Source: a virus (lineage: Duplodnaviria; Caudoviricetes). Taken from it: a stretch of DNA of 24,120 nucleotides. Below the pieces are notes generated by a model. The model ran no database searches. It worked only from the letters and a program-made list of their open reading frames with translations, and was not told where the DNA came from. The stretch spans positions 1 through 24,120 of the IMG/VR virus record IMGVR_UViG_3300036943_000252. One strand, given 5' to 3'. Position numbers and translations under genes: made by a program. Shown one piece after another: positions 1 to 20,976 of the stretch (position 1 is the first letter of the stretch; the number at the start of each line of letters is the position of its first letter).

Positions 1-1
1 G

Positions 2-145
2 GCGGAGAACCACGCAAATGAAGTCTTAGAGCTAACAGCAAAGATAGACCGAAAACTGAAGTGGTACAGATATGGGGTAGCTGGGCTGTTAGTGGTTGTG
101 CTTGCTGAAACCATAATAATATCCGTTGATATGGTGGTGGATTAA
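2..145 (+). CDS. 3' end of a gene running in from the left edge; C-terminal hydrophobic (transmembrane-like) segment
   Basis: Open frame from position 2 reads AENHANEVLELTAKIDRKLKWYRYGVAGLLVVVLAETIIISVDMVVD* (TAA 143-145) and is followed by a terminator. Not in the ORF track because it is 5'-truncated. Confidence 0.6.
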   Translation, partial: AENHANEVLELTAKIDRKLKWYRYGVAGLLVVVLAETIIISVDMVVD

Positions 146-187
146 ACGCGCATAGCGGTATTCCGTTTGCGCCCCTTCTCTCTCTTT

Positions 188-217
188 GGGTCGATCCTTC
201 GGGGTCGGCCCTTTTTT
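188..217 (+). terminator. Rho-independent terminator
   Basis: GGGTCGATCC-TTCG-GGGTCGGCCC: 10-bp stem (2 G-U pairs) with a C(UUCG)G tetraloop, followed by TTTTTT. Confidence 0.9.
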
Positions 218-222
218 AGTCT

Positions 223-393
223 TGTGTGTCTACCGTGGACACGGCAAAAAAGTGTGTGTCTACCGTGGACACGGCAAAAAAGTGTGTGTCTACCGTGGAC
301 ACGGCAAAAAAGTGTGTGTCTACCGTGGACACGGCAAAAAAGTGTGTGTCTACCGTGGACACGGCAAAAAAGTGTGTGTCTACCGTGGACACG
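223..393. repeat. Perfect tandem repeat, 30-bp unit x5 plus a 21-bp partial copy (iteron- or centromere-like array)
   Basis: Unit TGTGTGTCTACCGTGGACACGGCAAAAAAG at 223, 253, 283, 313, 343 and partial at 373. Each unit has a 17-bp near-palindrome GTGTCTAC-C-GTGGACAC and an A6 tract. No spacers. Confidence 0.95.
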
Positions 394-432
394 CTAGAGA
401 CATGTGAATCTAATAAAACGCAATAATATTAC

Positions 433-461
433 TTGACAATTATTTACAATACCGTTAAGCT
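433..461 (+). promoter_or_regulatory. sigma70/sigmaA-type promoter of the replication-initiation operon
   Basis: TTGACA (433-438), 17 nt, TAAGCT (456-461) in an AT-rich stretch; G-rich SD before ATG 498. Confidence 0.75.
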
Positions 462-497
462 ATTAGAATACTTACATCAGAGTACAAGGGGGGTACT

Positions 498-902
498 ATG
501 ACGAAGGAGCTAAATGATGCAATTATAGCTATTATAAAAAGTTATGATGATGAAGATTATGGAAAAAACAAGAAAACCGGACAGAAATTAAAAGCCCTTA
601 AAGACGCCTACAACGAAAATTGGAATGGCAAGACTTTAACTCAGGAGCGTGTAATTTTTGTAGAAAAATGTTTACAGCAGGGAATGTCAAAAAGAGAAGC
701 CGCAAGGCAATTGGTAAAGCGCGATCCGAGAATAGGAAAAGGTAGCGCAGAAACAATTGTGTACCAGAACTTCTCAGGGATGTATCAAACTACACGTCGA
801 GGGAGGAGATACAAATACAGCAACAACCCACCAAAACCTATTGAAGAGAGCCAAAATATATTAGAGACACCTGACATTAGTAACGATGAGGAATTGTTAT
901 GA
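498..902 (+). CDS. Small putative DNA-binding (HTH-like) protein, first gene after the repeat array
   Basis: 134 aa with strong SD; QQGMSKREAARQLVKRDPRIGKGSAETIVY resembles a helix-turn-helix; basic RRGRR patch; ATGA overlap with next gene. Confidence 0.55.
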   Translation: MTKELNDAIIAIIKSYDDEDYGKNKKTGQKLKALKDAYNENWNGKTLTQERVIFVEKCLQQGMSKREAARQLVKRDPRIGKGSAETIVYQNFSGMYQTTRRGRRYKYSNNPPKPIEESQNILETPDISNDEELL

Positions 903-1660
903 CACCGATGTTCAGCACATATGAAAACCTATTAAAACTTCATACCGATCTTATAGAACATCAGGGAAAATCAGTGCCTATTATAGAATTGTATATATAC
1001 TATTGCATTCACAATGGAGAAATAATTACACAAAAACAGATTCAAAATGATATGAAATGGAGTTATGATAGGGTTATTTCTTGTACCCAGCTATTAAAAG
1101 ATGCAGGTGCAATAGAAGTAACTAAACATAAGCACAATAAGAAGTTATACAATGTTTGTGATTTATTGTATTCCATTCCTCGGTTTTTGGTTTCTTCTTC
1201 TTCTAGTACTAGTAATATATATACTAGTAAGACTAGAAGACTAGAAGATGAGAGTAAAGGAATGAAAAAAGTAGAAGAGATTGAAAACGATGAAGATTGG
1301 AAGGCTATTGAAGCTATCTTGTTGAAGTACTTTCATAAACATCAAATTAAACCCGTATTCTTAAAGAACGGCCATTTATGGGATCGGCTGTATAATCTAT
1401 ACTCTGAGGAGGGGTTTGATTTCGATGGGTACTGTAAATGGTATAGGGTGAACAAATATCCTATGAAGAAGTTTCATTATGGATTGTTACTGTATGATGG
1501 TATGGTCAGCGAATATAAAGACGCGCTATTGGATGAGGAGGAGGACAGTCGGTATATACACACCGACACTATGAACAACAGTGATAGTTTTAAGAAATCT
1601 TTGAAGAAGAAAAAGAAGATGTATGAAGATATGGGGCTCAATGAGGAGGGTGATGATTGA
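899..1660 (+). CDS. Putative phage replication initiator (N-terminal winged-helix-like domain)
   Basis: 253 aa; ITQKQIQNDMKWSYDRVISCTQLLKDAGAIEV is wHTH-like; low-complexity linker encoded by an inverted-repeat DNA cluster; directly upstream of DnaC-like loader and DnaB, the usual initiator position. Confidence 0.6.
   Translation: MTPMFSTYENLLKLHTDLIEHQGKSVPIIELYIYYCIHNGEIITQKQIQNDMKWSYDRVISCTQLLKDAGAIEVTKHKHNKKLYNVCDLLYSIPRFLVSSSSSTSNIYTSKTRRLEDESKGMKKVEEIENDEDWKAIEAILLKYFHKHQIKPVFLKNGHLWDRLYNLYSEEGFDFDGYCKWYRVNKYPMKKFHYGLLLYDGMVSEYKDALLDEEEDSRYIHTDTMNNSDSFKKSLKKKKKMYEDMGLNEEGDD
1193..1248. repeat. CTAG-rich inverted-repeat cluster inside the initiator gene (candidate origin)
   Basis: TCTTCTAGTACTAGTAATATATATACTAGTAAGACTAGAAGACTAGAAGA: five CTAG, TACTAGTA palindromes flanking an (AT)n core, and TCTTCTAGT/ACTAGAAGA inverted repeat. 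Confidence 0.65.
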
Positions 1661-2478
1661 TGATACACGATGATTTGTTTGAGTATCTATTGGAGCTTCG
1701 AAGGGAGATTGTTGATAACCATGAACCATGTAATGGGGATGGATGGCTCCCTCCTGAGAACCCCGGAGAGTTGAATCCGTGTGATTGTATGGTTGCTTAT
1801 ACATATATTGCTGAACTTGTGAAGGCATACATTCCAAAAGATTATTGGTGGTTGAATATTGATGATTTGGAAGTCGATAAAGCGGATATTGCATTTTGTA
1901 AGAACTACATGAATAAACTGGATAAGGCAAAAGAGCACGCTTTGGGAGTATTATTTCATGGCCCGAATGGAATCGGTAAGACCAGTATGCAATGTATGAT
2001 TGGTAAAGAGGCGATTGTATATGGGTATACGGTTCGATATTTTACCGCACAGCAATACATTGAAGCTAAAAAGCAAAAAAGTGAATTATTGGAATACTAT
2101 GAGTCTGCTGATTTTATCCTATTCGACGAGCTTGATAAAGTGTACATCAGCCGAGGAAGTAATTTTGTGCTGAAGACTTTAGAAGACTTTATCAGACGAA
2201 TGACTTCTTTGGGGAAAGTGTTGATAATTTGTACAAATAGCGATGAGGAGTATCTGAATAAGACTTTCGGGGCATCTACTATGTCGGTACTTCGAAGACA
2301 TCTTGGGTTTCTTCCCGTGGAAGGTACAGATTACAGCGGTAATATGCAAGATCGTTGGCACGCTTTGTTACAATCAGACCGGGATTACTTATCTGATTCT
2401 ATACTTTCGATTGCCCGACGGCGTATGGAGAGAGAGCTTCAGGAGGATAAGCGTGAGTGGGAAAAAACTTATAGATGA
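1657..2478 (+). CDS. dnaC: DnaC/IstB-like helicase loader AAA+ ATPase
   Basis: N-terminal Zn-binding-like motif (HEPC...PCDC), Walker A GPNGIGKT, Walker B FILFDE, ICTN sensor motif. Confidence 0.85.
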   Translation: MMIHDDLFEYLLELRREIVDNHEPCNGDGWLPPENPGELNPCDCMVAYTYIAELVKAYIPKDYWWLNIDDLEVDKADIAFCKNYMNKLDKAKEHALGVLFHGPNGIGKTSMQCMIGKEAIVYGYTVRYFTAQQYIEAKKQKSELLEYYESADFILFDELDKVYISRGSNFVLKTLEDFIRRMTSLGKVLIICTNSDEEYLNKTFGASTMSVLRRHLGFLPVEGTDYSGNMQDRWHALLQSDRDYLSDSILSIARRRMERELQEDKREWEKTYR

Positions 2479-3904
2479 AGATATCCGCGATAAAGCGCAG
2501 GATTTCAGGGACACGGAGATTGAATATCAGGTAATGGCGTATATTTTGAGGGTGAACCCGTTGGCTATAAGTGCCGTTGATTCTTCGTGGTTCAGTGATA
2601 TCATTCTTCAGGATATATTTGAAATAGCTAACGATCTTAGGATGTTATTCTCTCGTGCCATGTTGATGACAGAGTTGAAAGACCGTTCGAAAATGCCAAA
2701 GAAGGAGGAGGGGTTATATTCTGAAGTCGTTAATCAGTTGTTTGATGATATTGATATCAACATTTTGAATGATAAAAATGTGCGTCATATGATGACTCAG
2801 TTATTGCGGTTATATGAGACCCGTAAAGTCTTAGTGGGATGTGGAGAGGTGATATCAACCATTCGAAAGTTTGATCTTGATTCTGCGAAGAGGAAATTGT
2901 ATGCACTGGGAAAGCCAGTTACTCTTTTTGACACTCGCAGAGCCGGGGACTATCTTCAAGATTATGGAGAACGGGTCGATACGATCACTTCTCGGGCGGA
3001 GGTAGCGGGGGATTCAGAGGATTCCCTTGTTGGCATAAAAACCGGAATATTCCGTTTTGATAAGTTTACTGGGGGGGTTATGCCTACCGAGTTCGGAGTG
3101 GTTGTTGGTATGACTGGAGTTGGTAAAACCGCCGCACTTATCGAGTTTGGGGTGACTGCTTGGGAGGATGGTCACGATGTGATGGTTTGTTCGGGAGAGA
3201 TGGATAAACAGTCCTTGGAGTTTCGCATTGATTCTCGGATTACTCGGATTCATGGGATGAAGTTTCGAAATGCTGATTTGGATGATGACGAATATAAAAA
3301 ATGGGACTCAACGATAAAGATGTACCGTGCTAAATATGAGAATCGATTATATGTTGTTAGTTATCCAAGAAGATTTACCGTAAATGATATAGAATCTGAT
3401 ATCTTGAGGATTGAAGAAGAGACCGGAAGAAAGATACAATTACTATGCCTTGATTACATAAATATTATGGAACCTGTGAGAAGCCCGAAGGGAGATTGGA
3501 GGGATCAATCAGAAGCGGTGTGGGATTTCAAATCATTATTAGCAGAGCATAATATCGCGGGGTGGACTGCTGGGCAGGTAAAGGACGATGCTTATGATAA
3601 GGAGCTTTATGATCCACAGGATGCGAAGTACGCCCGCGCAATATCTGAGGCCGCTCCGATTATGGTGGGGCTGATACGTACACCGAAGGATATACTTGAA
3701 AAGCGGATGAAGTTTCAGATCATTAAGATGCGTAATACTCCCATACCTACCCGACCAATTTTACTTACTCCGAATCTGAATATCATGAGACTCAATGAGC
3801 ATAGCGGAACCCATAAGAGCTTGAAAGGTCGTCAGAGTGATTTTCTGGATGTGAAAAAGAAGACAAGAACTGCAAGGCCGAGGAAATCCTTGCACGGGAA
3901 GTAG
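2453..3904 (+). CDS. dnaB: Replicative DNA helicase, DnaB family
   Basis: Walker A GMTGVGKT, SGEM, LCLDYINIM, AGQ and KMRN motifs. Start moved from 2303 to GTG 2453, which follows AGGAGG at 2441-2446. Confidence 0.88.
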   Translation: MSGKKLIDEDIRDKAQDFRDTEIEYQVMAYILRVNPLAISAVDSSWFSDIILQDIFEIANDLRMLFSRAMLMTELKDRSKMPKKEEGLYSEVVNQLFDDIDINILNDKNVRHMMTQLLRLYETRKVLVGCGEVISTIRKFDLDSAKRKLYALGKPVTLFDTRRAGDYLQDYGERVDTITSRAEVAGDSEDSLVGIKTGIFRFDKFTGGVMPTEFGVVVGMTGVGKTAALIEFGVTAWEDGHDVMVCSGEMDKQSLEFRIDSRITRIHGMKFRNADLDDDEYKKWDSTIKMYRAKYENRLYVVSYPRRFTVNDIESDILRIEEETGRKIQLLCLDYINIMEPVRSPKGDWRDQSEAVWDFKSLLAEHNIAGWTAGQVKDDAYDKELYDPQDAKYARAISEAAPIMVGLIRTPKDILEKRMKFQIIKMRNTPIPTRPILLTPNLNIMRLNEHSGTHKSLKGRQSDFLDVKKKTRTARPRKSLHGK

Positions 3905-3906
3905 GA

Positions 3907-4863
3907 ATGGATGTATATAAGGAACTAAGCGATAGGGGAATTGATTTCCAAGAGTCGGGGGGAAATCGGTATATGCTTAATTGCCCTTTCCATGATGACA
4001 ATAACCCATCGTGCGGGGTGTGGAAAGATAGTGGGTATTTTTTATGCTTCGGATGCGGTGCCAGGGGGAGTTTTACCGAACTTATCGCGGAGCTTGATGG
4101 TGTTAGTTTCGATGAGGCACACAGGTCGCTTAGAAGTGAGGACAATGTATCGACAATTGAATCGAAGATTAGACGATTCCTTGATGAAGATGTTGATGCT
4201 TTAAAGTTTTTTAATTTGAAGTCTTTTTTGAAGGTGTACCCGAAGCTGAAAGAGGGCGATCCCGGTTGGCAGTATTTGTTGGGCCGTGGAATAACCCCGG
4301 AATCCATTCACAGGTTTCGTATGCGTGAGGGGACAAAAAGATATCATGGTAGAGTTGTACTTCCTATATTCACGCCGGAGGGAAAATTATTGTCATATGT
4401 TGGGAGGGCCATAAATCCCGATGTACGTCCTAAGACGATTAAAAGTCGATCGCCCCATAGGACTTTTTATGGCATTTTTGAAATATTGAGAGATAGTCGG
4501 GTAGAGCCGAAAAGCCTTTCAATGGTAATCGTTGAGGGTGAGTTTGATGCGGTGTATTTACAGCAGTTTGGTATTCCGGCAGTGTCGAATATGGGGACTA
4601 CTCCGATGACCCCGTATAAAATTAGAATATTGAGAAGATATGCGAAACGTGCCGTCTTGAGTTTTGATGGGGATGACGCCGGGTATCATGCTATGTATGG
4701 CGATGGGGAGAAAAGACGGTGTGGTATAGTTCATGAGTTAAGAAAGCATTTACCAGTTACAGTGGTTGATTTACCCGATGGGAAAGACCCAAACGAATTA
4801 AGTGCTGAGGATGTTATAGATTTGTACGGTAAATATTCAATACAGGGGGGGCTTTATGTCTAA
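3907..4863 (+). CDS. dnaG: DNA primase (CHC2 zinc finger + Toprim)
   Basis: CPFHDDNNPS...CFGCG zinc finger; VEGEFDA and FDGDDAG Toprim motifs; GKDPNE. Confidence 0.92.
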   Translation: MDVYKELSDRGIDFQESGGNRYMLNCPFHDDNNPSCGVWKDSGYFLCFGCGARGSFTELIAELDGVSFDEAHRSLRSEDNVSTIESKIRRFLDEDVDALKFFNLKSFLKVYPKLKEGDPGWQYLLGRGITPESIHRFRMREGTKRYHGRVVLPIFTPEGKLLSYVGRAINPDVRPKTIKSRSPHRTFYGIFEILRDSRVEPKSLSMVIVEGEFDAVYLQQFGIPAVSNMGTTPMTPYKIRILRRYAKRAVLSFDGDDAGYHAMYGDGEKRRCGIVHELRKHLPVTVVDLPDGKDPNELSAEDVIDLYGKYSIQGGLYV

Positions 4864-5770
4864 AAAGATTGTTAAAGAAGAGTTTAAGGAGGAGGTGAAG
4901 AAAGCAGAGAAGGAAGAAGCGGAGGAAAGGTCTTTAGCTGTTGTGGAGAGAACTTTGGCTACGATGGAGAAGAACTTGGATATTCAAGAGAATGAGGGGG
5001 GTTCGGTTTATACCATACCTATACCCGCACGCCTCCTTAATTCTGTCGAGATAACTATAGATAATTTTGATTATGACGAAGTAGTGAAAGATTTGCGGTC
5101 GTCAATTCGATCGAGCGAAGATTTGGCGCATATGTCTTCTCTTGTGACGATAGCAACTGCAAAGAAGATATGGTGTGTTGATAATATTATTAACCAACTG
5201 CCGGAATATACGATTAAGCAGTTATGTATTGATGCTGAGGTTCCTAGAAGTACGTATTATAAGTATAGGGATAAGGTGCAGGAGCTTATAGACTCCGGCA
5301 AGGATTTGGATGCTATTCCTGATACCATGCCTGTAAACGAGGCATTACGGATTGAGTCTACTTCGATAAAAAATAAGTTTGAGGCTTATAAGCGGGTTGC
5401 GGCTGAATATCAGATGGCTTATGAGGAGTCTGAGATAGAGCGAGAGCGTCAGGCAAGAGATGCACTTAATAAACAAAAAAAGGCGTTAGCGACACAGAAG
5501 GCAAAATATGAAAAGCTTTTGGAACAGGCAAAGTCTATCAATCCTACTAAGGAGGAGCGTGAGGAGTTGGAGGCGCAAATTGTTGCTATACGAGAGCAAA
5601 AAGAGAATCTCGAAACTGAGATAAACAGTATTAATACTAAGTTGGAGCGTTATTCTAATACGAAGAGTTTTATTGCGCTTGTAGATGATATGGCACGTAT
5701 TTCTAGAGATATTATTGCTATACACGAGGCTATGCCGTTTCATATAAAACGAAAAAAGGAGGCAGAGTAG
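4856..5770 (+). CDS. HTH plus long coiled-coil protein (TubY-like architecture; possible tubulin partner)
   Basis: TIKQLCIDAEVPRSTYYKY HTH-like motif then about 100 aa of E/K/Q-rich heptad sequence; stop overlaps the tubulin start (TAGTG). Confidence 0.6.
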   Translation: MSKKIVKEEFKEEVKKAEKEEAEERSLAVVERTLATMEKNLDIQENEGGSVYTIPIPARLLNSVEITIDNFDYDEVVKDLRSSIRSSEDLAHMSSLVTIATAKKIWCVDNIINQLPEYTIKQLCIDAEVPRSTYYKYRDKVQELIDSGKDLDAIPDTMPVNEALRIESTSIKNKFEAYKRVAAEYQMAYEESEIERERQARDALNKQKKALATQKAKYEKLLEQAKSINPTKEEREELEAQIVAIREQKENLETEINSINTKLERYSNTKSFIALVDDMARISRDIIAIHEAMPFHIKRKKEAE

Positions 5771-6876
5771 TGTTTGATTTTTGTATTGGATTAGGGCAGG
5801 GAGGAGGAAGGATTGCGAATGCGTTTTACAACGGGTTTTCTATTCCCACGGTGTACATGAATCTTGCCGGGATCGATTTTACTCATATGAAGATTTCGTC
5901 TCGCGATTTGTTGGTATTTGAAGAGGGCGGTACTGGGCGTAATCCGAAGTTTGGAGAGTCTGTAGTTCGTAGTCGTCTTGATGATGTTATTCGGTTTTTA
6001 CAGCGTGATGAGGTTCGTAATGCTCAACGGGTTCTTGTTACCGTCGGTGGTGGGGGTGGTGCCGGAACCGGATTTCTTATTCCTATTTTAGATCATTTAA
6101 CCGATTTGAAGAAGGATGTTTTCTTGATCTATACATTACCAGAGAAGCGTGAAGGTATCCCGACAAAGCCGAATGCGCTTGAAATGTTGGATAGGGTCAT
6201 CGCCAGATATTTGCAAAGTGAATCGAGGAGGAAGATAAGCCTTCTTTTGATTGATAATGATTTTTGCGTGTCACGATATGGGAATGGTGATGGGTTTGAT
6301 TATTGGCATTCTGTGAATGTGGGTATTGTTGCCGGGCTGAAAAGATTTTGGCTTCTTACTCAGTTGGATCGATTCTCTGCGTTTATTGATATAGCTTCTG
6401 GGTATAAGGCCCTTGATGCGAATGATGTTCGGCGGGTTCTATTTGCTAAAAATGGGTATACCGATATTAGACAAGTAGTATTTGATAGCCCGAAAGAGGA
6501 TGAGGGGATGATGCGTAAAATAAAAACATCAAGCCTTATTTTCGGTTCGTTGGACATTCGAACAGCGAAGCAGTATGTGGTTTCAATAGGCGTTCCCATG
6601 GGTTGGAAAAACTACCCTCGGACGGGGAAGTTTATTGAGGAGGTATTTCAAACAGTGTCCAAGGCAACCCGACATACCCCAGATGCTATCCGTACCAGTT
6701 ACTTTAATTCGAAGCTTGTTTCGATGCAGGTTCATATTCTTCTCTCGGGTATGGCAAAAAGCCCTGGGATTGATAGGATGATTCGAGGGGCGGAAAAAGA
6801 TCGTGTTCGGTTGGACAGTAGGGGGGACGTACAGCGTCTTGATTTGGAGAATATTGTAAATCGTGTAAAAAAGTGA
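5770..6876 (+). CDS. Phage-encoded FtsZ/tubulin-family GTPase (TubZ/PhuZ/CetZ-like)
   Basis: T1 loop IGLGQGGGRIA, T3 GGTGRNPKFGE, signature loop GGGGGAGTG, T5 LPEKRE, T6 LIDND, T7 LDANDVRRVL, C-terminal LLSGM strand and basic tail. Confidence 0.92.
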   Translation: MFDFCIGLGQGGGRIANAFYNGFSIPTVYMNLAGIDFTHMKISSRDLLVFEEGGTGRNPKFGESVVRSRLDDVIRFLQRDEVRNAQRVLVTVGGGGGAGTGFLIPILDHLTDLKKDVFLIYTLPEKREGIPTKPNALEMLDRVIARYLQSESRRKISLLLIDNDFCVSRYGNGDGFDYWHSVNVGIVAGLKRFWLLTQLDRFSAFIDIASGYKALDANDVRRVLFAKNGYTDIRQVVFDSPKEDEGMMRKIKTSSLIFGSLDIRTAKQYVVSIGVPMGWKNYPRTGKFIEEVFQTVSKATRHTPDAIRTSYFNSKLVSMQVHILLSGMAKSPGIDRMIRGAEKDRVRLDSRGDVQRLDLENIVNRVKK

Positions 6877-6885
6877 AAAAAGTTG

Positions 6886-6914
6886 TGTACAAACATAGAA
6901 AATTGTGATAGATT
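6886..6914 (+). promoter_or_regulatory. Probable promoter for the recombination/replication operon
   Basis: TGTACA (6886-6891), 17 nt, extended -10 TG-A-TAGATT (6906-6914) in the only sizeable gap between 498 and 15648; SD AGGGGG follows. Confidence 0.5.
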
Positions 6915-6933
6915 GTATATAGGGGGATAAAGA

Positions 6934-7443
6934 ATGAATAGATCGTTAAAAGGAGCCACCAAAGAGGATTTGGATAATTCCAAGATTGAGTTCAATTACA
7001 ATGGAAAAGACTATTCGGTCAAAATTGAAAATAACTTCTCGATGAAGGATATGTCTCCGGCGGAAATAAAAGATTATCTGAATCAGATTCCGGCCCGATT
7101 TGCCTACTGGAAAGGTATTCAGGTTGGTTTGGAACGGGAGATTGAGGAGATGGAAGAGGACTTTGAAGTATGGTTCCAAAAACTCTATATGGATATTGAT
7201 GCGGAGTATCCTAAGAAGACCGAGGGGTGGAAGAAATCAAAAGTTCTTCTTGAAAATGCTGATGAGTATAGGAATCAGAAAAAGAAGCTTCGCGATGTGA
7301 AGGATGTAAACAAGAAAATTAGTGTTATTGTTTCCAGCTACAATACTATGACATGGACTCTTCGGGAAATCGCTCGGTTGACATACGCCGAGATGAGTAA
7401 TATTGAAATACGCGGGCGGGGAACGCTCGCGGGAATGCAATAG
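6934..7443 (+). CDS. UvsY-like recombination mediator (helical)
   Basis: 169 aa helical protein whose pattern (PARFAYW...TEGWKKSKV...DEY...TLREIARL) recalls T4 UvsY; lies directly before SSB and RecA. Confidence 0.5.
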   Translation: MNRSLKGATKEDLDNSKIEFNYNGKDYSVKIENNFSMKDMSPAEIKDYLNQIPARFAYWKGIQVGLEREIEEMEEDFEVWFQKLYMDIDAEYPKKTEGWKKSKVLLENADEYRNQKKKLRDVKDVNKKISVIVSSYNTMTWTLREIARLTYAEMSNIEIRGRGTLAGMQ

Positions 7444-7452
7444 GAGGAGCTA

Positions 7453-8508
7453 ATGAAAAGTTTAAAAAGGAATGAGGATATCCAAACAACGCACGATGCG
7501 GCGGAAGGCGGACAAAGTTACTTTTTGTCTATACCGGAAACGCGGACTCCGTGGTTTCTGATGAGTCTTGACTATGCTGATGGGTTCGTGCATTGGGTGG
7601 ATATCGGTGGGCAGGTACGGCGTGTAGTTTGCGCCGGGGGTCTGGATGGAAAGGGGTTCGCTCCTGATGATTGTCCCATCTGTTCATATGTTGTGGGGCT
7701 GTATCAGGAAGCGAAAGAGCTTCGGGAAGCGGGTCACACTGCGAAGGCTGATAAGCTGAAGAATAAAGCCAATCGTATGCGCGGTAAGCTGGAAGTTCAG
7801 TTCAAAGCTATTCGCGGAGCGTTTGAAATCGAACGGGATAGGAAGACTGGAAAGAAAATCAAGGTTGTGTCTTTCGATCAGGAAGATGAGGACCTTGACG
7901 TATCCCCCGGAATTATTGCTCTAAGTAGCTCTCAGTTTGATGGACTTACTGGGCTGATTAAGGGAGAGGATACTCCGTTTATCGAGGTTGGTGATGATCT
8001 TGGTAAGCACTATCTCATTACGAAAAAGGAACGGAAGAAAGGTCGTAGTGGGGGAAAGTACAGTCAGGTTGTTTGGGATGCTGAGGAGGAGGAAGTGTCC
8101 GAGGTACCCGATGTAGAGATTCCAAAGGAGCTTACTGAAATCAACCTGGAAGATAATTTTCAGATCAACGATGAAGAGCTTCAGAAGGTCTATGGGCTTA
8201 TTACTGGGGAATCTTCTGAGGAGCCCGACGATGATGAGGATGTTGAGTTGGAAGAGGACTCCTCTGAAGAGCCGGATGAAGCGTACCTTGATGACGTCGA
8301 AGATGATGATGAGGAGAGTGCGGAGGATGAAGAGGCTGACGAGGAGGTCGATGATGAAGTTCTTGAGTTTGAAGATGACATGCCGGACGAAGAGCCTCCG
8401 AAAAAGAAAAAGGCAATCCCCACCAAAGGAAAGACTGCAAAGCCTATCCCGAAGCGGAATACTGCTAAAACGGCACCGAAACGGAAGTCAGGTAAAACGA
8501 GGCTTTAA
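7453..8508 (+). CDS. Single-stranded DNA-binding protein, T4 gp32-like
   Basis: VHWV...VVC...DCPIC Zn-ligand pattern, long D/E-rich tail, position next to RecA. Confidence 0.7.
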   Translation: MKSLKRNEDIQTTHDAAEGGQSYFLSIPETRTPWFLMSLDYADGFVHWVDIGGQVRRVVCAGGLDGKGFAPDDCPICSYVVGLYQEAKELREAGHTAKADKLKNKANRMRGKLEVQFKAIRGAFEIERDRKTGKKIKVVSFDQEDEDLDVSPGIIALSSSQFDGLTGLIKGEDTPFIEVGDDLGKHYLITKKERKKGRSGGKYSQVVWDAEEEEVSEVPDVEIPKELTEINLEDNFQINDEELQKVYGLITGESSEEPDDDEDVELEEDSSEEPDEAYLDDVEDDDEESAEDEEADEEVDDEVLEFEDDMPDEEPPKKKKAIPTKGKTAKPIPKRNTAKTAPKRKSGKTRL

Positions 8509-8510
8509 TT

Positions 8511-10043
8511 GTGAATCATGAAGATTTGCGTAAGAAGGTGAACGCCGAACTCAAACGTCCGGCGTTTGCCGGATTGACCCAAGAGAGAGGGGAGAGAATC
8601 ACTAATGGGCTTTCATCGGGAAGCATGATGCTGAACGTGGCCCTTAGTGGTTCCCCGTTTGTTGGGTATGTATGGGGTCGGGTTGCAGAAGTATACGGAC
8701 CAGAGGCGTGTTTAGATGCAAATACATTCATTCAATATTCTGTTGTTGGTAAGGATGGAAAGAGGCAGAATCATAAGGGCGGGACAGTACGTCGGTTGTA
8801 CGAGCGCTTTCATGGTATTGCGCGAAGAGGAAAAGGGTTCTACCAAAGGAAAAGTACGGTAGATAGCGAGTTCTTTGTGCCGTCAATTGATTGGAATGGG
8901 TGTGTGTTTTCTAACCGTGTTGCCGATGTAGTGTTTACCGGAAGAAAGAGATGTTTCCTTGTTCGCTCTGTCTCTGGAAAAGAGATTGTTTGTACTGGGG
9001 ATCATAAGTTTTTTACAGGTAACGGGTACACCAGTCTTAGTGAGCTTTATATTGGTTCCACTATTTTTGTTCACACGAATCGGGTGAATGTAGTGGTTGA
9101 AGATTCGATTGAGAGTATAGTTTCGGTAGGGTTTAGAGAGACTTGTGATGTGAAGTGTTTTTTTCCGCATAATAACTATGTGGCAGGTGGATTTGTTGTC
9201 CACAATTCTGGAAAGACTACACTTGCTTTGACTGCGATCAGGGAGGCCCAGAAGCTTGAGGCATCGAGTGGTGAATCTATACCTTGTTTATTCGTTGATG
9301 CTGAATATGCTTTGGATACTTTCTATGCGGAGAGCATTGGTATTGATTTGGACAATCTTACCATTTCACAGCCAGGGTGTGGTGAAGATGCTTTAAACGA
9401 GGTTGAAGTAGGGGTAAAGAATGGGTATCGACTTGTAGTGATAGACTCGGTTGCGGCCCTTACTCCAAGAGCGGAGATAGAGGGTGAGATGGGACAAGCG
9501 CATGTGGGTCTACAGGCCCGGCTTATGAGTCAGGCTTTGAGAAAGTTGACGGGGCTTGTAGCTAAAAGCGGTGCGATTGTTATTTTTATAAACCAGGTAA
9601 GGATGAGGGTTGGAATCGTGTACGGAAGCCCGGAAATTACAAGTGGCGGGCAGGCCTTGAAGTTTTATGCTACCTACCGATTGGAAATACGCTCTCCCAG
9701 ATCGGGGAAGAAAACCGGAAAGACGTTAATGGGATATGGGGACACAGAACAATCGGTTGAGTTGGGTACTGTTGCCAATGTGAAAGTAAATAAAAATAAG
9801 GTTTTTCCACCGCATCGATCTGCAAGCTTCATAATTGAGTATGGGAAAGGTATCGATAAAATATCTGATGCGATAGCCTTTTTGGAGTTTGCTGAGGTGT
9901 TTAAGTCGGAGGGTGGTAAAATAGAAATACCATCGAAGGGAAAATCATATACAGCGCGTGGATTAGCAAAGATTTTACACGAACCTGAAGTACAATCCGA
10001 TGTGATTGATATTATACGTGGTATTGAGGGGGGTGTGGGGTGA
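8511..10043 (+). CDS. recA: RecA/UvsX recombinase with an intein (mature protein about 344 aa)
   Basis: GPEA|SGKTTL P-loop, FVDAEYALD, VIDSVAALTPRAEIEGEMG, GLQARLMSQALRKL, FINQVR, SGGQALKFYA. Confidence 0.96.
   Translation: MNHEDLRKKVNAELKRPAFAGLTQERGERITNGLSSGSMMLNVALSGSPFVGYVWGRVAEVYGPEACLDANTFIQYSVVGKDGKRQNHKGGTVRRLYERFHGIARRGKGFYQRKSTVDSEFFVPSIDWNGCVFSNRVADVVFTGRKRCFLVRSVSGKEIVCTGDHKFFTGNGYTSLSELYIGSTIFVHTNRVNVVVEDSIESIVSVGFRETCDVKCFFPHNNYVAGGFVVHNSGKTTLALTAIREAQKLEASSGESIPCLFVDAEYALDTFYAESIGIDLDNLTISQPGCGEDALNEVEVGVKNGYRLVVIDSVAALTPRAEIEGEMGQAHVGLQARLMSQALRKLTGLVAKSGAIVIFINQVRMRVGIVYGSPEITSGGQALKFYATYRLEIRSPRSGKKTGKTLMGYGDTEQSVELGTVANVKVNKNKVFPPHRSASFIIEYGKGIDKISDAIAFLEFAEVFKSEGGKIEIPSKGKSYTARGLAKILHEPEVQSDVIDIIRGIEGGVG
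8709..9206 (+). mobile_element. Mini-intein (166 aa) in the RecA Walker A motif
   Basis: Starts CLDANT, block B CTGDHKFF, ends VVHN followed by Ser; removal restores GPEASGKT; no endonuclease domain. Confidence 0.93.
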
Positions 10044-16867: not shown

Positions 16868-17191
16868 ATGCCGAATATAAATTATGAGGGTAATAGATCA
16901 AGCATACATCCAGAAGATATTATGGAAGAGTATATGAAGTTTCCAGAACCGTTAAAATGTGCTGTAACGAATCTGCGAGGGTCTGTAGCATTTATGCTGG
17001 GGACGGTAATTGATAAGACCAGAGAGGAAAATGAGGATTTGCCGTATGATACTACGGCAGATTGGGTGTGTGGGCCGAATGAATCTATCGCACTTGTTTT
17101 GAACTTTATTTTAATCGGACAAAGGACGTATGGTGAAGTATGGGTAGAAGAACTCTTTCGACGGTATCAGAAACTGTCGACGAACCAATAG
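16868..17191 (+). CDS. Hypothetical protein
   Basis: ATG 16868 just after the exonuclease stop, with GGGGAG SD; fills the gap to the polymerase. Confidence 0.6.
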   Translation: MPNINYEGNRSSIHPEDIMEEYMKFPEPLKCAVTNLRGSVAFMLGTVIDKTREENEDLPYDTTADWVCGPNESIALVLNFILIGQRTYGEVWVEELFRRYQKLSTNQ

Positions 17192-20100
17192 TAGAGTATA
17201 ACCCCGATTGTAAGTTATGCCCGAAGCTATCTGGAAATGCGTTTACGGTATGTATGCAAGGGGATGGACCTTCGAATGCCGATTTGATGATAGTCGGGGA
17301 GGCTCCTGGGGAGCAGGAAGATGACTTGAACCGTCCATTTGTTGGGCAGGCTGGTGAGTACCTTCGGGATGATTTATTGGTCCCGGCGGGTATTCCTGAA
17401 TCAAAAGTTAGATTCACGAATGCTGTACGTTGTCATCCGAAGCAAAATAAGACCCCTTCAGCAGGTGCGATTCGTAAATGTAGACAATATTTGGAAGCCG
17501 AGATTCGTAGGATAAACCCGATAGTTATTGTTGGTATGGGGAATGTGCCGCTTGCTTCGCTTCTCCATTTTTTCTATTCTAAGGGCGTTGAAGATGGGGC
17601 GTCCAAGAAGACAGAGGCGAAGGTCGGGGGTATTACAAAATGGCAGGGAAAAACTATTTGGCTTCAAGAGTTTCAATGTTGGTTTATACCTACATTTCAT
17701 CCAAGCTATTGTATGCGTAATGAGCGCGGTGGTTCTTTGTATAGTACCAATAAAGTAATTGAAGATTTGTCGAAGGCGTGGGGTTTGGCAAATAAACCCC
17801 GTCCGAATTACCGTATGCCAATAGCGGAAATAGTGGATTCCCCGGAACATGCTCTTACCGTTATTGATGAAATGAAAGAGAACAAGGTATTTGCATTTGA
17901 TATAGAGACCGGAGGAAAGGGCCGTGCAATCGACAAATATGTGCTTGGTGCATCGTTCTGTTGTTCCGAAGATAGGGGTTACTATATTCGATGGAAAACA
18001 TTGAAAGACCCGAAAGTATACTGTGAGTTTATTTCTCTGGTGAATAATAAACTATATACGAAAGTTATGCACAATGGGGCTTATGAACTGAGGATTTTTA
18101 AGTTTAATGATATACCTATTAGTGACAATTATTACGATACGATGATGGCGGTTCATCTTTTGGATGAGAACTTTTATAAAGGATTGAAACCGAATGCGTG
18201 GGTGATGACGAGGTTTGGAGGATACGATGTTGAATTGGAAAAGTACAAGTCTGAGAATAAAATAGTTGAAGATTATTCAAAGATACCGGACGATATGCTT
18301 ACCGAATATGGTGCGTATGATGCTATAGCAACGTGGATTATTTATAATAAAACAAAAAAGGCATTGAAAGAGGAGACTATGTTACCTCTTTTCAATAAGA
18401 TTATTATGCCTGTTCGAAGAGTGCTTACTAATGCAGAAGTAACAGGTATGCGAGTGGATATAGAGCGGGCGAATGCTCTTAAAGATGCAAGCAAAAGAGC
18501 TATGGAAGCTTTGGAAAATTGTATTTATAAAGAAGCTGGTGAAGAGTTTAATCTGAACAGCACCAAACAGCTATCGGATGTGTTGTATGTTCGTATGAAG
18601 CTTCCTGCATTAAAGAAGACGATAAGCGGCTATAGTTGTGACAAAGAGTCTATTGAATATATAAAGAATAAGACCGGCCATCCGATTGCGGGGTATCTAT
18701 CCGATCGTAATTACATTAAAACTATGTTTACTACGCATATATCACAGGCCATTGAGTTTGCATGGCCCGAAGATGGGCGGATACATACGAATTATAATTC
18801 TACCGGGACGGTAACCGGGCGGATAAGTTGTATTGCTGAGAGTACTTTGGTACAGACTTCCCGGGGTAAGGTTCCAATAGAGCAAGTAGTTCCAGGGGAT
18901 TTGGTTCGTTCACATACTGGGGAGTTCCGAAAAGTGCTTCAAACCTTGGATCAAGGTGTACGGCCCGTTTATCGATTGACAACGGAAAAGTCCCGACACA
19001 TACTGTGCACAAGTGACCATAGGTTTCTTACTCCGTTGGGGTGGGTATGTGCAAAGAATCTTGAGGAGGTTTATTGTGATCGACAATCCTATGCTATGCA
19101 CACCCACGGGGCACCGGAGTTTACACCGGAAGTGGAAAGCATTGCGTCATTCACCTATGTGGGAGAAATACAAGTCTATGATCTTACCGTAGATGTCGAT
19201 GCGTCATTTATTGCGGAGGGTTTTTTAGTTCATAATTGTTCGATGCCATCCCTTCAGAACGTCCCCTCTGATTCTTTGATTCGGTCGTTATATACTGCTA
19301 GCCCCGGGAATATGTTGGTAGAGGCAGATTTGAAGAGCGCGGAGATGGCAATTATTGCCGCTATTAGTGGGGAGAGAACGTTTATACGGTCTTTTGAAGA
19401 GGGGCTTGATATTCATTCTGAAACATATCGTCAAATATATGATCTACCCGCTGATTATGAGTGTACAAAGTTAGAGCGTAGGTTGGCTAAGTGTTTTCAT
19501 CCAGATACCGAGGTGCTAACCCCCCGTGGATGGGTTAGAATGCGGGATTTGAGAGGGGAGCCTATAATTCAGGCGGTTCTTGGCTCTATCGGTGAGCCAG
19601 TGAGCTTGGAGTGGACTTCTGAGTATACGTGCCCTCTCGCTCCGAATGAGCACGATAAACTAGTGCATCTCAAAAATGAAGGGATTGATTTAATGGTAAC
19701 CCCGGATCATAGGATGGTTGTCCAAAAATCTGGAACATCGAAAGAGTGGAGTGTAGTGACCCCGTATGAGGTGGAGAAATCACGAGGATGGGTCAATGCT
19801 GGTGTGCTTACTGGTGGTAAGGTAGTGAATGAGGATGTCTTACGTCTTGCTGTCGCCATCCAGGCTGATGGTAGTTTGAATGGTGATCGTGTTAGGTTCG
19901 GGTTTACTAAGAGACGTAAGAAGGATCGTTTATGCCGTCTTTTAGATAGTTTGGGGGCCGAGTATACTGTAGACTGGAAATATCACTGGAAAACTCCGAT
20001 GTGGTATTTTATGGTTTCCGGCGATGCGGTTACTTCTGCATTAAACTTTCTTGAAGATAAGTGCTTTTCGTGGGGAATGCTTGCGTTAGATTTTGATTCC

Positions 20101-20976
20101 CGAAAGGTAATTGTAGATGAGAGTAGATTTTGGGATTCTCATAGGGCGTGTAATCGGAAACAGTTTATTTACTCTTCAAATACTAAGCAGAATGTTGATA
20201 TTTTACAGGCCATTGCATCCTCTATAGGGTTAAAGACTCGGGCGGTGTATAATGGTCGTGGTATGTGGCTTTTGAGTGTTAAGGATCATGCAAAAACTCA
20301 GGGTGGTTCATTGAAACTTACTGAGATACCTTACACTGACAGTGTGGCTTTACTGTCCGTTCCCAGTACGTTTGTATTGGTTCGTTATGGTGGGGTTCCG
20401 ATTATTACTGGACAAACAATTAACTTTGGCCTTATATATGGTATTTCTGCCTCTGGGCTCTCCGCTCGTCTTGGTATGTCTATTGAAGAGGCTCAGGAGT
20501 TCATAGATTTATATTTTGAGCGTCTTCCAAACGTTTCTAAGTGGATGGACAAACAGAAAAGATTTGTTAGGGCTTATGGGTATGTAGAGTCTCCATTTCA
20601 TCGTAAGCGGCATCTTCCTGAAGCGTTATCGGATAAGCCTGTGGATATAGGTAGGGCGGAAAGGCAGGCCATGAATAGCCCTATTCAATCTGGGGCGGCG
20701 GATTATACGTATGTGGGTCTTATACGGTTGGATAGATCGATAAGGAATGACCGTTTGGATGGGCGTATTGTACATTCAGTACATGATTGTGTGGTTACTG
20801 ATACTCCAATGGCGGAGATAGACCAGATGTCGGAATTGGTTGTGAGTGCGTTTGAGCGTCCGTTAAAAATTGTGCCAATTAGGATGGTTGCTGAAGTTGA
20901 AGTCAATAAGCGGTGGGGCCAACAGAATGAATCGAAACTACAGACTATCTTAGATAGTCTTAAAATAGAAGTTTAA
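17140..20976 (+). CDS. polA: Family A DNA polymerase with N-terminal family-4 uracil-DNA glycosylase domain, 3'-5' exonuclease and two inteins (mature about 834 aa)
   Basis: UDG4: CKLC, GEAPGEQED, PFVGQAG, TNAVRC, TFHPSY. Exo: FDIET, HNGAYE, YGAYDA. Pol: TVTGRIS|CSMPSLQN, ADLKSAEM, RRLAK|TINFGLIYG, NSPIQSGAAD, VHD. Confidence 0.95.
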   Translation: MGRRTLSTVSETVDEPIVEYNPDCKLCPKLSGNAFTVCMQGDGPSNADLMIVGEAPGEQEDDLNRPFVGQAGEYLRDDLLVPAGIPESKVRFTNAVRCHPKQNKTPSAGAIRKCRQYLEAEIRRINPIVIVGMGNVPLASLLHFFYSKGVEDGASKKTEAKVGGITKWQGKTIWLQEFQCWFIPTFHPSYCMRNERGGSLYSTNKVIEDLSKAWGLANKPRPNYRMPIAEIVDSPEHALTVIDEMKENKVFAFDIETGGKGRAIDKYVLGASFCCSEDRGYYIRWKTLKDPKVYCEFISLVNNKLYTKVMHNGAYELRIFKFNDIPISDNYYDTMMAVHLLDENFYKGLKPNAWVMTRFGGYDVELEKYKSENKIVEDYSKIPDDMLTEYGAYDAIATWIIYNKTKKALKEETMLPLFNKIIMPVRRVLTNAEVTGMRVDIERANALKDASKRAMEALENCIYKEAGEEFNLNSTKQLSDVLYVRMKLPALKKTISGYSCDKESIEYIKNKTGHPIAGYLSDRNYIKTMFTTHISQAIEFAWPEDGRIHTNYNSTGTVTGRISCIAESTLVQTSRGKVPIEQVVPGDLVRSHTGEFRKVLQTLDQGVRPVYRLTTEKSRHILCTSDHRFLTPLGWVCAKNLEEVYCDRQSYAMHTHGAPEFTPEVESIASFTYVGEIQVYDLTVDVDASFIAEGFLVHNCSMPSLQNVPSDSLIRSLYTASPGNMLVEADLKSAEMAIIAAISGERTFIRSFEEGLDIHSETYRQIYDLPADYECTKLERRLAKCFHPDTEVLTPRGWVRMRDLRGEPIIQAVLGSIGEPVSLEWTSEYTCPLAPNEHDKLVHLKNEGIDLMVTPDHRMVVQKSGTSKEWSVVTPYEVEKSRGWVNAGVLTGGKVVNEDVLRLAVAIQADGSLNGDRVRFGFTKRRKKDRLCRLLDSLGAEYTVDWKYHWKTPMWYFMVSGDAVTSALNFLEDKCFSWGMLALDFDSRKVIVDESRFWDSHRACNRKQFIYSSNTKQNVDILQAIASSIGLKTRAVYNGRGMWLLSVKDHAKTQGGSLKLTEIPYTDSVALLSVPSTFVLVRYGGVPIITGQTINFGLIYGISASGLSARLGMSIEEAQEFIDLYFERLPNVSKWMDKQKRFVRAYGYVESPFHRKRHLPEALSDKPVDIGRAERQAMNSPIQSGAADYTYVGLIRLDRSIRNDRLDGRIVHSVHDCVVTDTPMAEIDQMSELVVSAFERPLKIVPIRMVAEVEVNKRWGQQNESKLQTILDSLKIEV
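18829..19236 (+). mobile_element. Mini-intein (136 aa) in PolA at TGRIS|C
   Basis: Starts CIAESTLV, block B CTSDHRFLT, block F VYDLTV, ends LVHN followed by Cys. Confidence 0.93.
19492..20415 (+). mobile_element. Intein (308 aa) with LAGLIDADG-type endonuclease region and C-terminal Gln, in PolA motif B
   Basis: Starts CFHPDTEVLT, block B VTPDHRM, LAVAIQADG motif, ends PIITGQ followed by Thr; removal restores RRLAKTINFGLIYG. Confidence 0.9.

Follow-up and report, generated by a model that had tools for sequence, protein, structure and literature searches.

That a phage filament can move DNA, and that TubZ is tied to replication, is already known in general. Type III TubZRC systems have been described from Bacillus cereus (pBc10987/pXO1-type RepX-TubZ), B. 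thuringiensis (pBtoxis) and Clostridium phage c-st. Their tubR and tubZ genes stand in tandem, and TubY is encoded outside the tubRZ operon, with an N-terminal MerR-like helix-turn-helix (HTH) (PMC7762940). A coiled coil and a lysine-rich tail are further features of TubY. It attaches to the filament and is a competitor for the C-tail (PMC5322520). For Bacillus plasmids, a link between TubZ and replication has already been published (PMC4219350), and phage c-st carries a Xer-type recombinase, filament genes alone being no proof of a plasmid state (PMC8026635). In the Corynebacterium prophage CGP3, the AlpA-AlpC system consists of a filament protein and an adaptor that are transcribed together early on; the latter binds upstream of its own operon, and both are needed for efficient phage replication (PMC4446434). 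In the literature that we searched, phage tubulins came either from jumbo phages (PhuZ) or from the plasmid prophage c-st (TubZ); a review on jumbo phages names two types of tubulin, in jumbo phages only (PMC7824862), and an FtsZ/TubZ homologue enters the discussion of phage G (PMC12484599). Here we analysed a 24,120-bp contig of an uncultured virus (Caudoviricetes; IMGVR_UViG_3300036943_000252), which in its entire length is called the window below and which encodes a tubulin-family GTPase (5770..6876) among its replication genes.

We give a probability of about 0.5 to the following reading: the TubZ-fold GTPase polymerises during infection and moves or positions replicating phage DNA, with the small protein encoded at 498..902 as its likely adaptor. 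After entry, the host polymerase would transcribe the operon, replisome genes included, from a promoter near position 433. The initiator would open an origin within its own gene, and DnaC, DnaB and primase would then load. The tubulin would polymerise and treadmill, driven by GTP as in TubZ, and the small protein would bind both the phage DNA and the filament, by which new copies would be moved or spread. The whole would act like AlpAC or PhuZ, with a TubZ-type motor.

A TubZ-type GTPase downstream of the primase gene

The protein encoded at 5770..6876 matches PF00091 above the cut-off (E 3e-9), and its model, built with 54 aligned sequences, reached a predicted local distance difference test score (pLDDT) of 88.8. 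Among 48,161 representative chains, the best structural match was B. cereus TubZ (Z 35.0, root-mean-square deviation 2.8, 338 aligned positions), which was also the top match in Foldseek. It was followed by the TubZ proteins of B. thuringiensis (Z 31.4) and c-st (Z 30.4), CetZ2 (Z 30.2), FtsZ (Z 23.6) and PhuZ (Z 21.8-21.9). Residues G93-G97, G99, G101 and D216 are present in 54/54 sequences, as is an aspartate or glutamate at position 219, and Q10 occurs in all 52 rows covering that position. We take G93-G101 to be the glycine-rich signature and D216 and position 219 to be the acidic positions of the T7 loop. The nucleotide-binding and T7 catalytic residues of a TubZ-type GTPase, as known from type III systems, are therefore intact. 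The preliminary description had called this gene the motor of a segregation system, and with its TubZ-type fold, its intact motifs and its conserved place after the primase gene it retains that role, filament formation being predicted.

The family comprises 58 other clusters with 38-71% identity to the window protein (E 1.5e-71 or better), and the next match has an E value of 3e-5. Identity to known TubZ proteins is 16-18%, and in our preferred reading 5770..6876 represents a new TubZ subfamily. No match to a cultured phage was obtained with tblastn against 50,697 phage records, and plasmids gave one weak match (E 3e-3). Distant tubulin/FtsZ-like genes with 24-30% identity were seen in viral and metagenome contigs (L010-L014, L021, L022 and L024), several of them with long N-terminal extensions and other neighbours. 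An apparently broken tubulin gene in G001 was traced to an N gap in the assembly, no frameshift being demonstrated.

The relatives of the window are myoviruses, in which tail sheath, baseplate, portal and capsid genes were found. Those that are 95-100% complete measure 87-96 kb, and the complete relative G011 has 95,702 bp. Near-identical records were counted once; L070 belongs to record G012 (96% complete) and L051 to record G006 (35% complete). The set is incomplete, the metagenome scan having covered 11/64 parts and the DnaC scan 33/64; a last DnaB scan gave no additional record, and a viral scan with a single sequence found no relative. One relative, L023, sits in an archaeal bin, probably through mis-binning, promoter and replisome being of bacterial type.

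The slot after the primase gene is visible in 12 relatives. Ten of them carry the tubulin gene within 1.4 kb of the primase gene (L001, L002, L004, L005, L008, L009, L019, L020, L023 and L069), and in two it is absent from this position (L051 and L070); since it was the tubulin that led to most of these ten, 10/12 is not an estimate of frequency. Five more tubulin loci (L007 and L015-L018) end short of the primase gene. Downstream, a gene for a protein like single-stranded DNA-binding proteins (SSB) follows the tubulin gene in 11/12 tubulin-bearing relatives with DNA on that side. In a DnaB tree, the tubulin-less L051 and L070 were placed separately among tubulin-bearing phages (94/94 and 85/89, neither starred). 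Because they stand in different places in the tree, the sequences suggest that the tubulin was lost separately in these two lineages.

The small protein and the slot upstream of the tubulin

The gene at 498..902 encodes a small protein of three helices, whose acidic tail ends in LL; the protein is conserved in the clade and is the best candidate for a DNA-to-filament adaptor. Its model contains helices only, with a three-helix bundle at residues 47-91 (block pLDDT 83-92), a disordered tail and a predicted template modelling score of 0.50. It had been described as HTH-like, which is plausible, though no structural match was significant. TubR has a winged-helix fold; it is not among the structural matches listed, although the small protein may still share this fold, and the Atlas gave no informative match. 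A StbA_2 match of the copy in L009 (E 6e-4, 20 bits vs a cut-off of 100) is no more than a lead. The four closest relatives share a nearly identical third helix, and the acidic tail ending in LL is found in 7/7 close homologues. The family is small and is represented in all six tubulin-bearing relatives with upstream DNA (G001, G002, G003 C7, G005, G011 and G008), and no homologue was found in the tubulin-less G012; these counts are too small for a statistical test.

A complex prediction for the small protein with the tubulin gave 0.54 (runs 0.41, 0.54 and 0.56), compared to 0.00 for the best of three controls. Contact agreement was at least 57% and partner pLDDT at least 57, and no interface was obtained. 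The mark used was reached by 116/157 solved pairs and 2/215 mismatched pairs. The range up to 0.60 holds only 18 of the 157 solved pairs, plus both mismatches, and for this reason the pass is a weak one. This weak support raises to roughly even the odds that 498..902 serves as the adaptor that the preliminary description had seen in it.

Several observations weigh against the reading set out above. The structure search with 498..902 returned no significant match (best Z 6.2, RecX). Five of the six positive relatives are members of the search profile; the homologue in G005 was initially seen only at E 0.015, and that in G008 is weak (4e-4) and lies on the opposite strand. The LL tail is absent from L051, L009 and L069, the latter two being tubulin-bearing. 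The tubulin-less fragment G006 keeps a homologue of the small gene (E 3.3e-6 among 11,897 frames), and G012 has no tubulin at 96% completeness, so that members of the clade can do without it. In the structural comparison, CetZ2 and c-st TubZ are level in their Z scores. Because the small proteins of the four closest relatives are nearly identical in their third helix, a site that they bind ought to be visible in these phages, but no such site emerged: the upstream words common to the window and at least three of these four relatives are promoter- or terminator-like, with the exception of GACACA, which overlaps the −35 box in the relatives. Finally, the missing integrase and HTH_3 repressor genes described below may be compatible with a plasmid prophage.

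Part of this evidence bears on an alternative in which the tubulin has no dedicated DNA adaptor and, for instance, acts as a scaffold for the machinery of replication and recombination or disturbs host division, with 498..902 encoding a transcription regulator or a DNA-coating protein. The homologue in G006 fits this alternative, and the small gene adjoins a sigma-like gene in the relatives. The copy in L009 (4391-4888) has Lys/Ala-rich tails, no conserved repeat site was found in 13 relative records or loci, and RepX-like TubZ is described as an orphan without TubR (PMC4219350). The alternative is less easily reconciled with a fold that is TubZ-like and not FtsZ-like, with the weak pass of the complex prediction against a best control of 0.00, or with G012, which lacks both genes. 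We consider a tubulin of this kind rather unlikely, and prefer the filament with 498..902 as its adaptor.

The position directly upstream of the tubulin, which is that of tubR in the published tandem, is taken in the window by another gene, 4856..5770, which overlaps the primase gene by 8 nt and the tubulin gene by 1 nt. It encodes an orphan protein with an HTH-like stretch at residues 103-147 (NF003361, E 4.5e-6, far below the cut-off), a coiled-coil-like stretch at 169-266 (NF045487, E 4e-4, below the cut-off) and a short basic end. These sub-threshold matches support the HTH-like and coiled-coil-like character that had been noted for it. The comparison with TubY, on the other hand, is not supported. 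The published TubY gene is not part of the tubRZ operon, and its product has the HTH at the N-terminus, whereas here the HTH-like stretch is central, without a MerR match at E 0.5, and the gene is inside the operon; a TubY gene elsewhere was looked for in a Pfam scan of G011 only. No homologue of 4856..5770 was found among candidates from a search of 5.8 billion proteins or among 1.84 billion representatives, and the Atlas gave only leads below 0.9, one of them a cluster with 26% DUF3102.

Among ten relatives, this slot is empty in four (L001, L019, L020 and L069), holds one small unrelated open reading frame (ORF) in two (L005 and L008) and is occupied in the remaining four by a gene for a long helical protein that is coupled to the tubulin gene, namely DUF3102 proteins (L004 and L023), a ParB_N protein (L002) and an unassigned protein (L009). 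None of these is significantly similar to 4856..5770, and the complete G011 has neither a slot gene nor the repeat array described below. The slot gene might nevertheless be the adaptor, swapped between lineages as HTH-like, DUF3102 or ParB-like proteins. The recurrence of long helical proteins in 4/10 relatives is the best argument for a role of the slot, the position is that of tubR, and a tree of the tubulins places the window with the DUF3102 phages L004 and L023 (95/93). Yet six of the ten relatives have an empty slot or a small unrelated ORF, and no DUF3102 or ParB_N protein is encoded anywhere in G001 (95% complete). An MT-A70 methylase gene in the slot region of L016 and a methylase-like gene in the tubulin-less L051 give the slot the look of a general insertion site. 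In addition, a tubulin was found in 0/5 other viral DUF3102-like loci within flanks of up to 6 kb, and hhalign of the two DUF3102 proteins against 4856..5770 gave a probability of 2%. A swapped adaptor therefore seems very doubtful to us, and 4856..5770 is likely an exchangeable accessory gene.

The repeat array and the likely promoter

Upstream of the small gene, a terminator-like hairpin with a T-run (188..217, hairpin 188-211, + strand) closes a lysis-type gene, a layout that is shared by the relatives (upstream regions, n=8). It is followed at 223..393 by a perfect tandem array of 5.7 copies with a period of 30 bp and 100% identity, each unit consisting of a 17-bp near-palindrome and an A-tract. 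The near-palindrome occurs in six exact copies, compared to 0.00 expected in 100 shuffles, and the palindromic repeat array of the preliminary description is thereby confirmed. The sequencing runs that contain the stretch are oil-field metagenomes from 2020, possibly of one campaign, and no RNA dataset is among those listed. Without assembly, the repeat unitigs of run X1, possibly the source sample, had depths of 41.6 and 57.6 against 16.4 and 7.8 for the flanks. The resulting ratio of 2.5 to 7 (5.7 copies would give about 4.7) fits about five to six copies. A 60-base tandem unitig was present in each of the runs X2-X6. An assembly artefact was considered and rejected: the run unitigs uphold the existence of the tandem, the copy number coming from X1 alone. 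Run X1 also contained four single-base variants at 1-142, pointing to at least two strains to the left of the array.

A likely sigma-70 promoter on the + strand was read by eye at 433..461 (TTGACA at 433-438, a 17-nt spacer, TAAGCT); it is missing from the list of a promoter scan whose count was at chance level (16 vs 18.4). The upstream word CTTGACA is common to the window and its four closest relatives. The corresponding region is visible in eight relatives (L001, L004, L009, L023, L025, L051, L069 and L070), in five of which the tubulin was seen. In all eight, a hairpin, T-run or comparable feature is followed by a short spacer and a −35-like box, after which comes a sigma-70-like gene or a gene in the same position. 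The sigma matches are below cut-off (best TIGR02937, E 1.5e-10, in L070), with none for L001, and L025 and L051 were judged by eye. The window differs from these eight relatives in having no sigma-like gene first in the operon (394-497); the array is found instead, and the gene may lie outside the contig.

None of the eight relatives has the array, neither by Tandem Repeats Finder nor by a word-cluster scan that recovers the array of the window. The latter, applied to 13 relative records or loci, found at least four 8-mers in 300 bp only in L020. The exact 18-mer of the array had no match in viral contigs, and the 17-mer palindrome had none with up to three mismatches in ten relative records, matches with 4-5 mismatches being near chance. 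No Rfam family was found in window positions 1-9000. Repeats thus stand upstream of the small gene, in the position of tubC, in the window and are absent in 8/8 relatives with the region. Five of these eight are tubulin-bearing. The array is not supported as the centromere of the family, and the earlier proposal, which expected relatives to keep array and tubulin together, did not hold across the clade. With its identical units, the array has probably expanded only recently, in the promoter region of the window's own lineage, where it may be an operator or a tether site.

Some palindromes and repeats of other kinds were noticed upstream in relatives. By eye, a 24-bp palindrome lies upstream of the −35 box in L023 (about 3874-3897), and an 18-bp palindrome overlaps the −35 box in L004; both are possible operators. 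The tubulin-bearing L020 starts with a near-perfect array of 6.1 x 18 bp (11-120), 730 bp upstream of DnaB. One open frame crosses this array, which may encode a hexapeptide repeat, and the initiator and small genes are absent from the contig.

According to the preliminary description, the window would carry a full type III cassette, with the array as tubC, 498..902 as TubR, 4856..5770 as TubY and the tubulin as TubZ; as a device for segregating a plasmid prophage, this appears improbable. The array lies directly upstream of the promoter and the small gene, as tubC does relative to tubR (PMC6009700), and true systems also have poorly conserved centromeres and adaptors (PMC7762940). The HTH-like and coiled-coil-like stretches and the basic end of 4856..5770 would suit a TubY, and the absence of an integrase from our searches is compatible with a plasmid prophage. 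Against these points stand the lack of the array in all eight relatives despite the near-identical third helix of the small protein in the four closest ones, the lack of palindrome matches in ten records, and the complete G011, where the tubulin is present but the array and a slot gene are both missing. Moreover, the small gene and the tubulin are five genes apart, and no tyrosine recombinase was found, whereas c-st has one (PMC8026635). A classical type III partition cassette is not shown, because the tandem arrangement of tubR and tubZ is lacking for 498..902, being occupied by an orphan that is absent in relatives, and because a tubC is not conserved. Of the four proposed parts, the motor stays, the adaptor is weakly supported, and the array and 4856..5770 drop out.

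A bolder version of the filament reading would have a virulent myovirus clade of about 90 kb rebuild a plasmid TubZ into a lytic DNA transport system wired to the replisome. A three-helix adaptor other than TubR would tether the DNA as replication starts, and sites would turn over so fast that the 30-bp array is a newborn centromere. We regard this version as quite unlikely.

Operon, lifestyle and comparison with known systems

All substantial genes of the window are on the + strand. The tight coupling claimed for the run from 498 to 5770 was borne out, the six junctions measuring −4, −4, −26, +2, −8 and −1 nt; the −26 junction uses a GTG start of DnaB at 2453 that is inferred from a Shine-Dalgarno site. 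The run does not end at the tubulin as had been stated: a same-strand gene follows after 57 nt, no terminator is listed, spacing is tight once more beyond this gap (9 and 2 nt), and genes continue to the terminase. An internal promoter in the gap is possible. In several relatives, a TATA-like word was seen by eye before the Shine-Dalgarno site in the same gap (6877-6933 in the window), possibly an internal promoter for the recombination genes.

Between the small gene and the slot, the operon encodes a replication initiator-like protein (899..1660) with an N-terminal, DnaD-like winged helix (phrog_186, E 3e-4), whose counterparts in relatives match DnaD_N, HTH and Phg_2220_C models. A DnaC-like helicase loader (1657..2478; phrog_50, E 3e-23), a DnaB-like helicase (2453..3904; PF03796, E 7e-20) and a DnaG-type primase (3907..4863; phrog_47, E 1e-52) come next. 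The linker of the initiator contains an AT-rich inverted repeat (1199..1240), a candidate replication origin, whose score was reached by 0/40 synonymous shuffles. Similar inverted repeats were found in L023 (1/40 shuffles), L009 (2/40) and L004 (3/40), with the other six relatives at chance level. Lambdoid phages are a known case of origins that lie within initiator genes. Since the linker holds this repeat, the array is unlikely to be the replication origin.

Downstream of the tubulin lies a conserved pair of genes (6934..8508) for a 169-amino-acid protein, which we take to be UvsY-like, and an acidic-tail protein, presumably SSB-like (phrog_1069, E 3.5e-5, unknown function). Further profile matches in the window are to RecA with an intein-like insert (8511-10043; relatives lack the insert), SbcCD, a helicase, a resolvase, an exonuclease, a family A polymerase that contains Hint domains, and the beginning of the large terminase. 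The polymerase (17140-20976) consists of an N-terminal uracil-DNA glycosylase domain and the polymerase with two Hint-type inserts. In L020, a gene downstream of RecA (8290-9201) appeared ParB-like by eye, with no Pfam match at E 0.01. In G011 (L072-L076), genes for Tad2-like, S-adenosylmethionine lyase, ART-PolyVal, DUF932 and SNF2-helicase proteins form a counter-defence set.

Regarding lifestyle, the tyrosine recombinase/integrase family PF00589 was found in 0/10 records, three of them 95-100% complete, and the HTH_3 repressor family PF01381 in 0/5. The complete G011 showed no partition, recombinase or repressor family among 117/134 ORFs, the 17 left out being replication or structural genes. 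We favour a role of the tubulin in productive infection over one in plasmid inheritance; its tight coupling to DnaB and primase suggests expression during active replication.

No description of this clade was found in the literature that we searched, which was mostly without subscription papers. What appears new is a separate TubZ-fold subfamily of 59 clusters in mid-sized phages without an integrase found, with a fixed place between primase and recombination genes, which some close relatives lack. Whether filaments help ordinary phages to organise DNA replication could be studied in this small system. The candidate adaptor may be unlike TubR, and the natural tubulin-less relatives can serve as comparators.

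With type III TubZRC systems, the locus shares a TubZ-type fold with a C-terminal helix (the top three structural matches) and a promoter followed by the gene of a small helical protein, with repeats ahead of them in the window. It differs in the distance between the small gene and the tubulin, which are not in tandem but have 4.9 kb and five genes between them, in the 16-18% identity and the unconserved repeats, and in its carrier, a myovirus clade of about 90 kb in which no tyrosine recombinase was found. Archaeal CetZ proteins resemble the tubulin in fold (Z 28.0-30.2), and are cellular proteins, unlike the product of a bacterial-type phage replisome operon studied here.

PhuZ of phiKZ, 201phi2-1 and Goslar is a phage tubulin that positions DNA during infection (PMC4244570), as is predicted here, and it is likewise non-essential in some members (PMC11724907). 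It is structurally more distant from the window protein (Z 21.8-21.9 vs 35.0 for TubZ). Nucleus-forming jumbo phages have genomes of more than 200 kb, unlike the 87-96 kb and host-type promoters of this clade, and no multisubunit RNA polymerase was matched in partial scans of G001 and G011. The best functional analogue is AlpA-AlpC of prophage CGP3, an early co-transcribed pair of filament and adaptor (PMC4446434). Its motor is actin-like and CGP3 integrates, whereas the clade described here carries a tubulin fold among its replisome genes.

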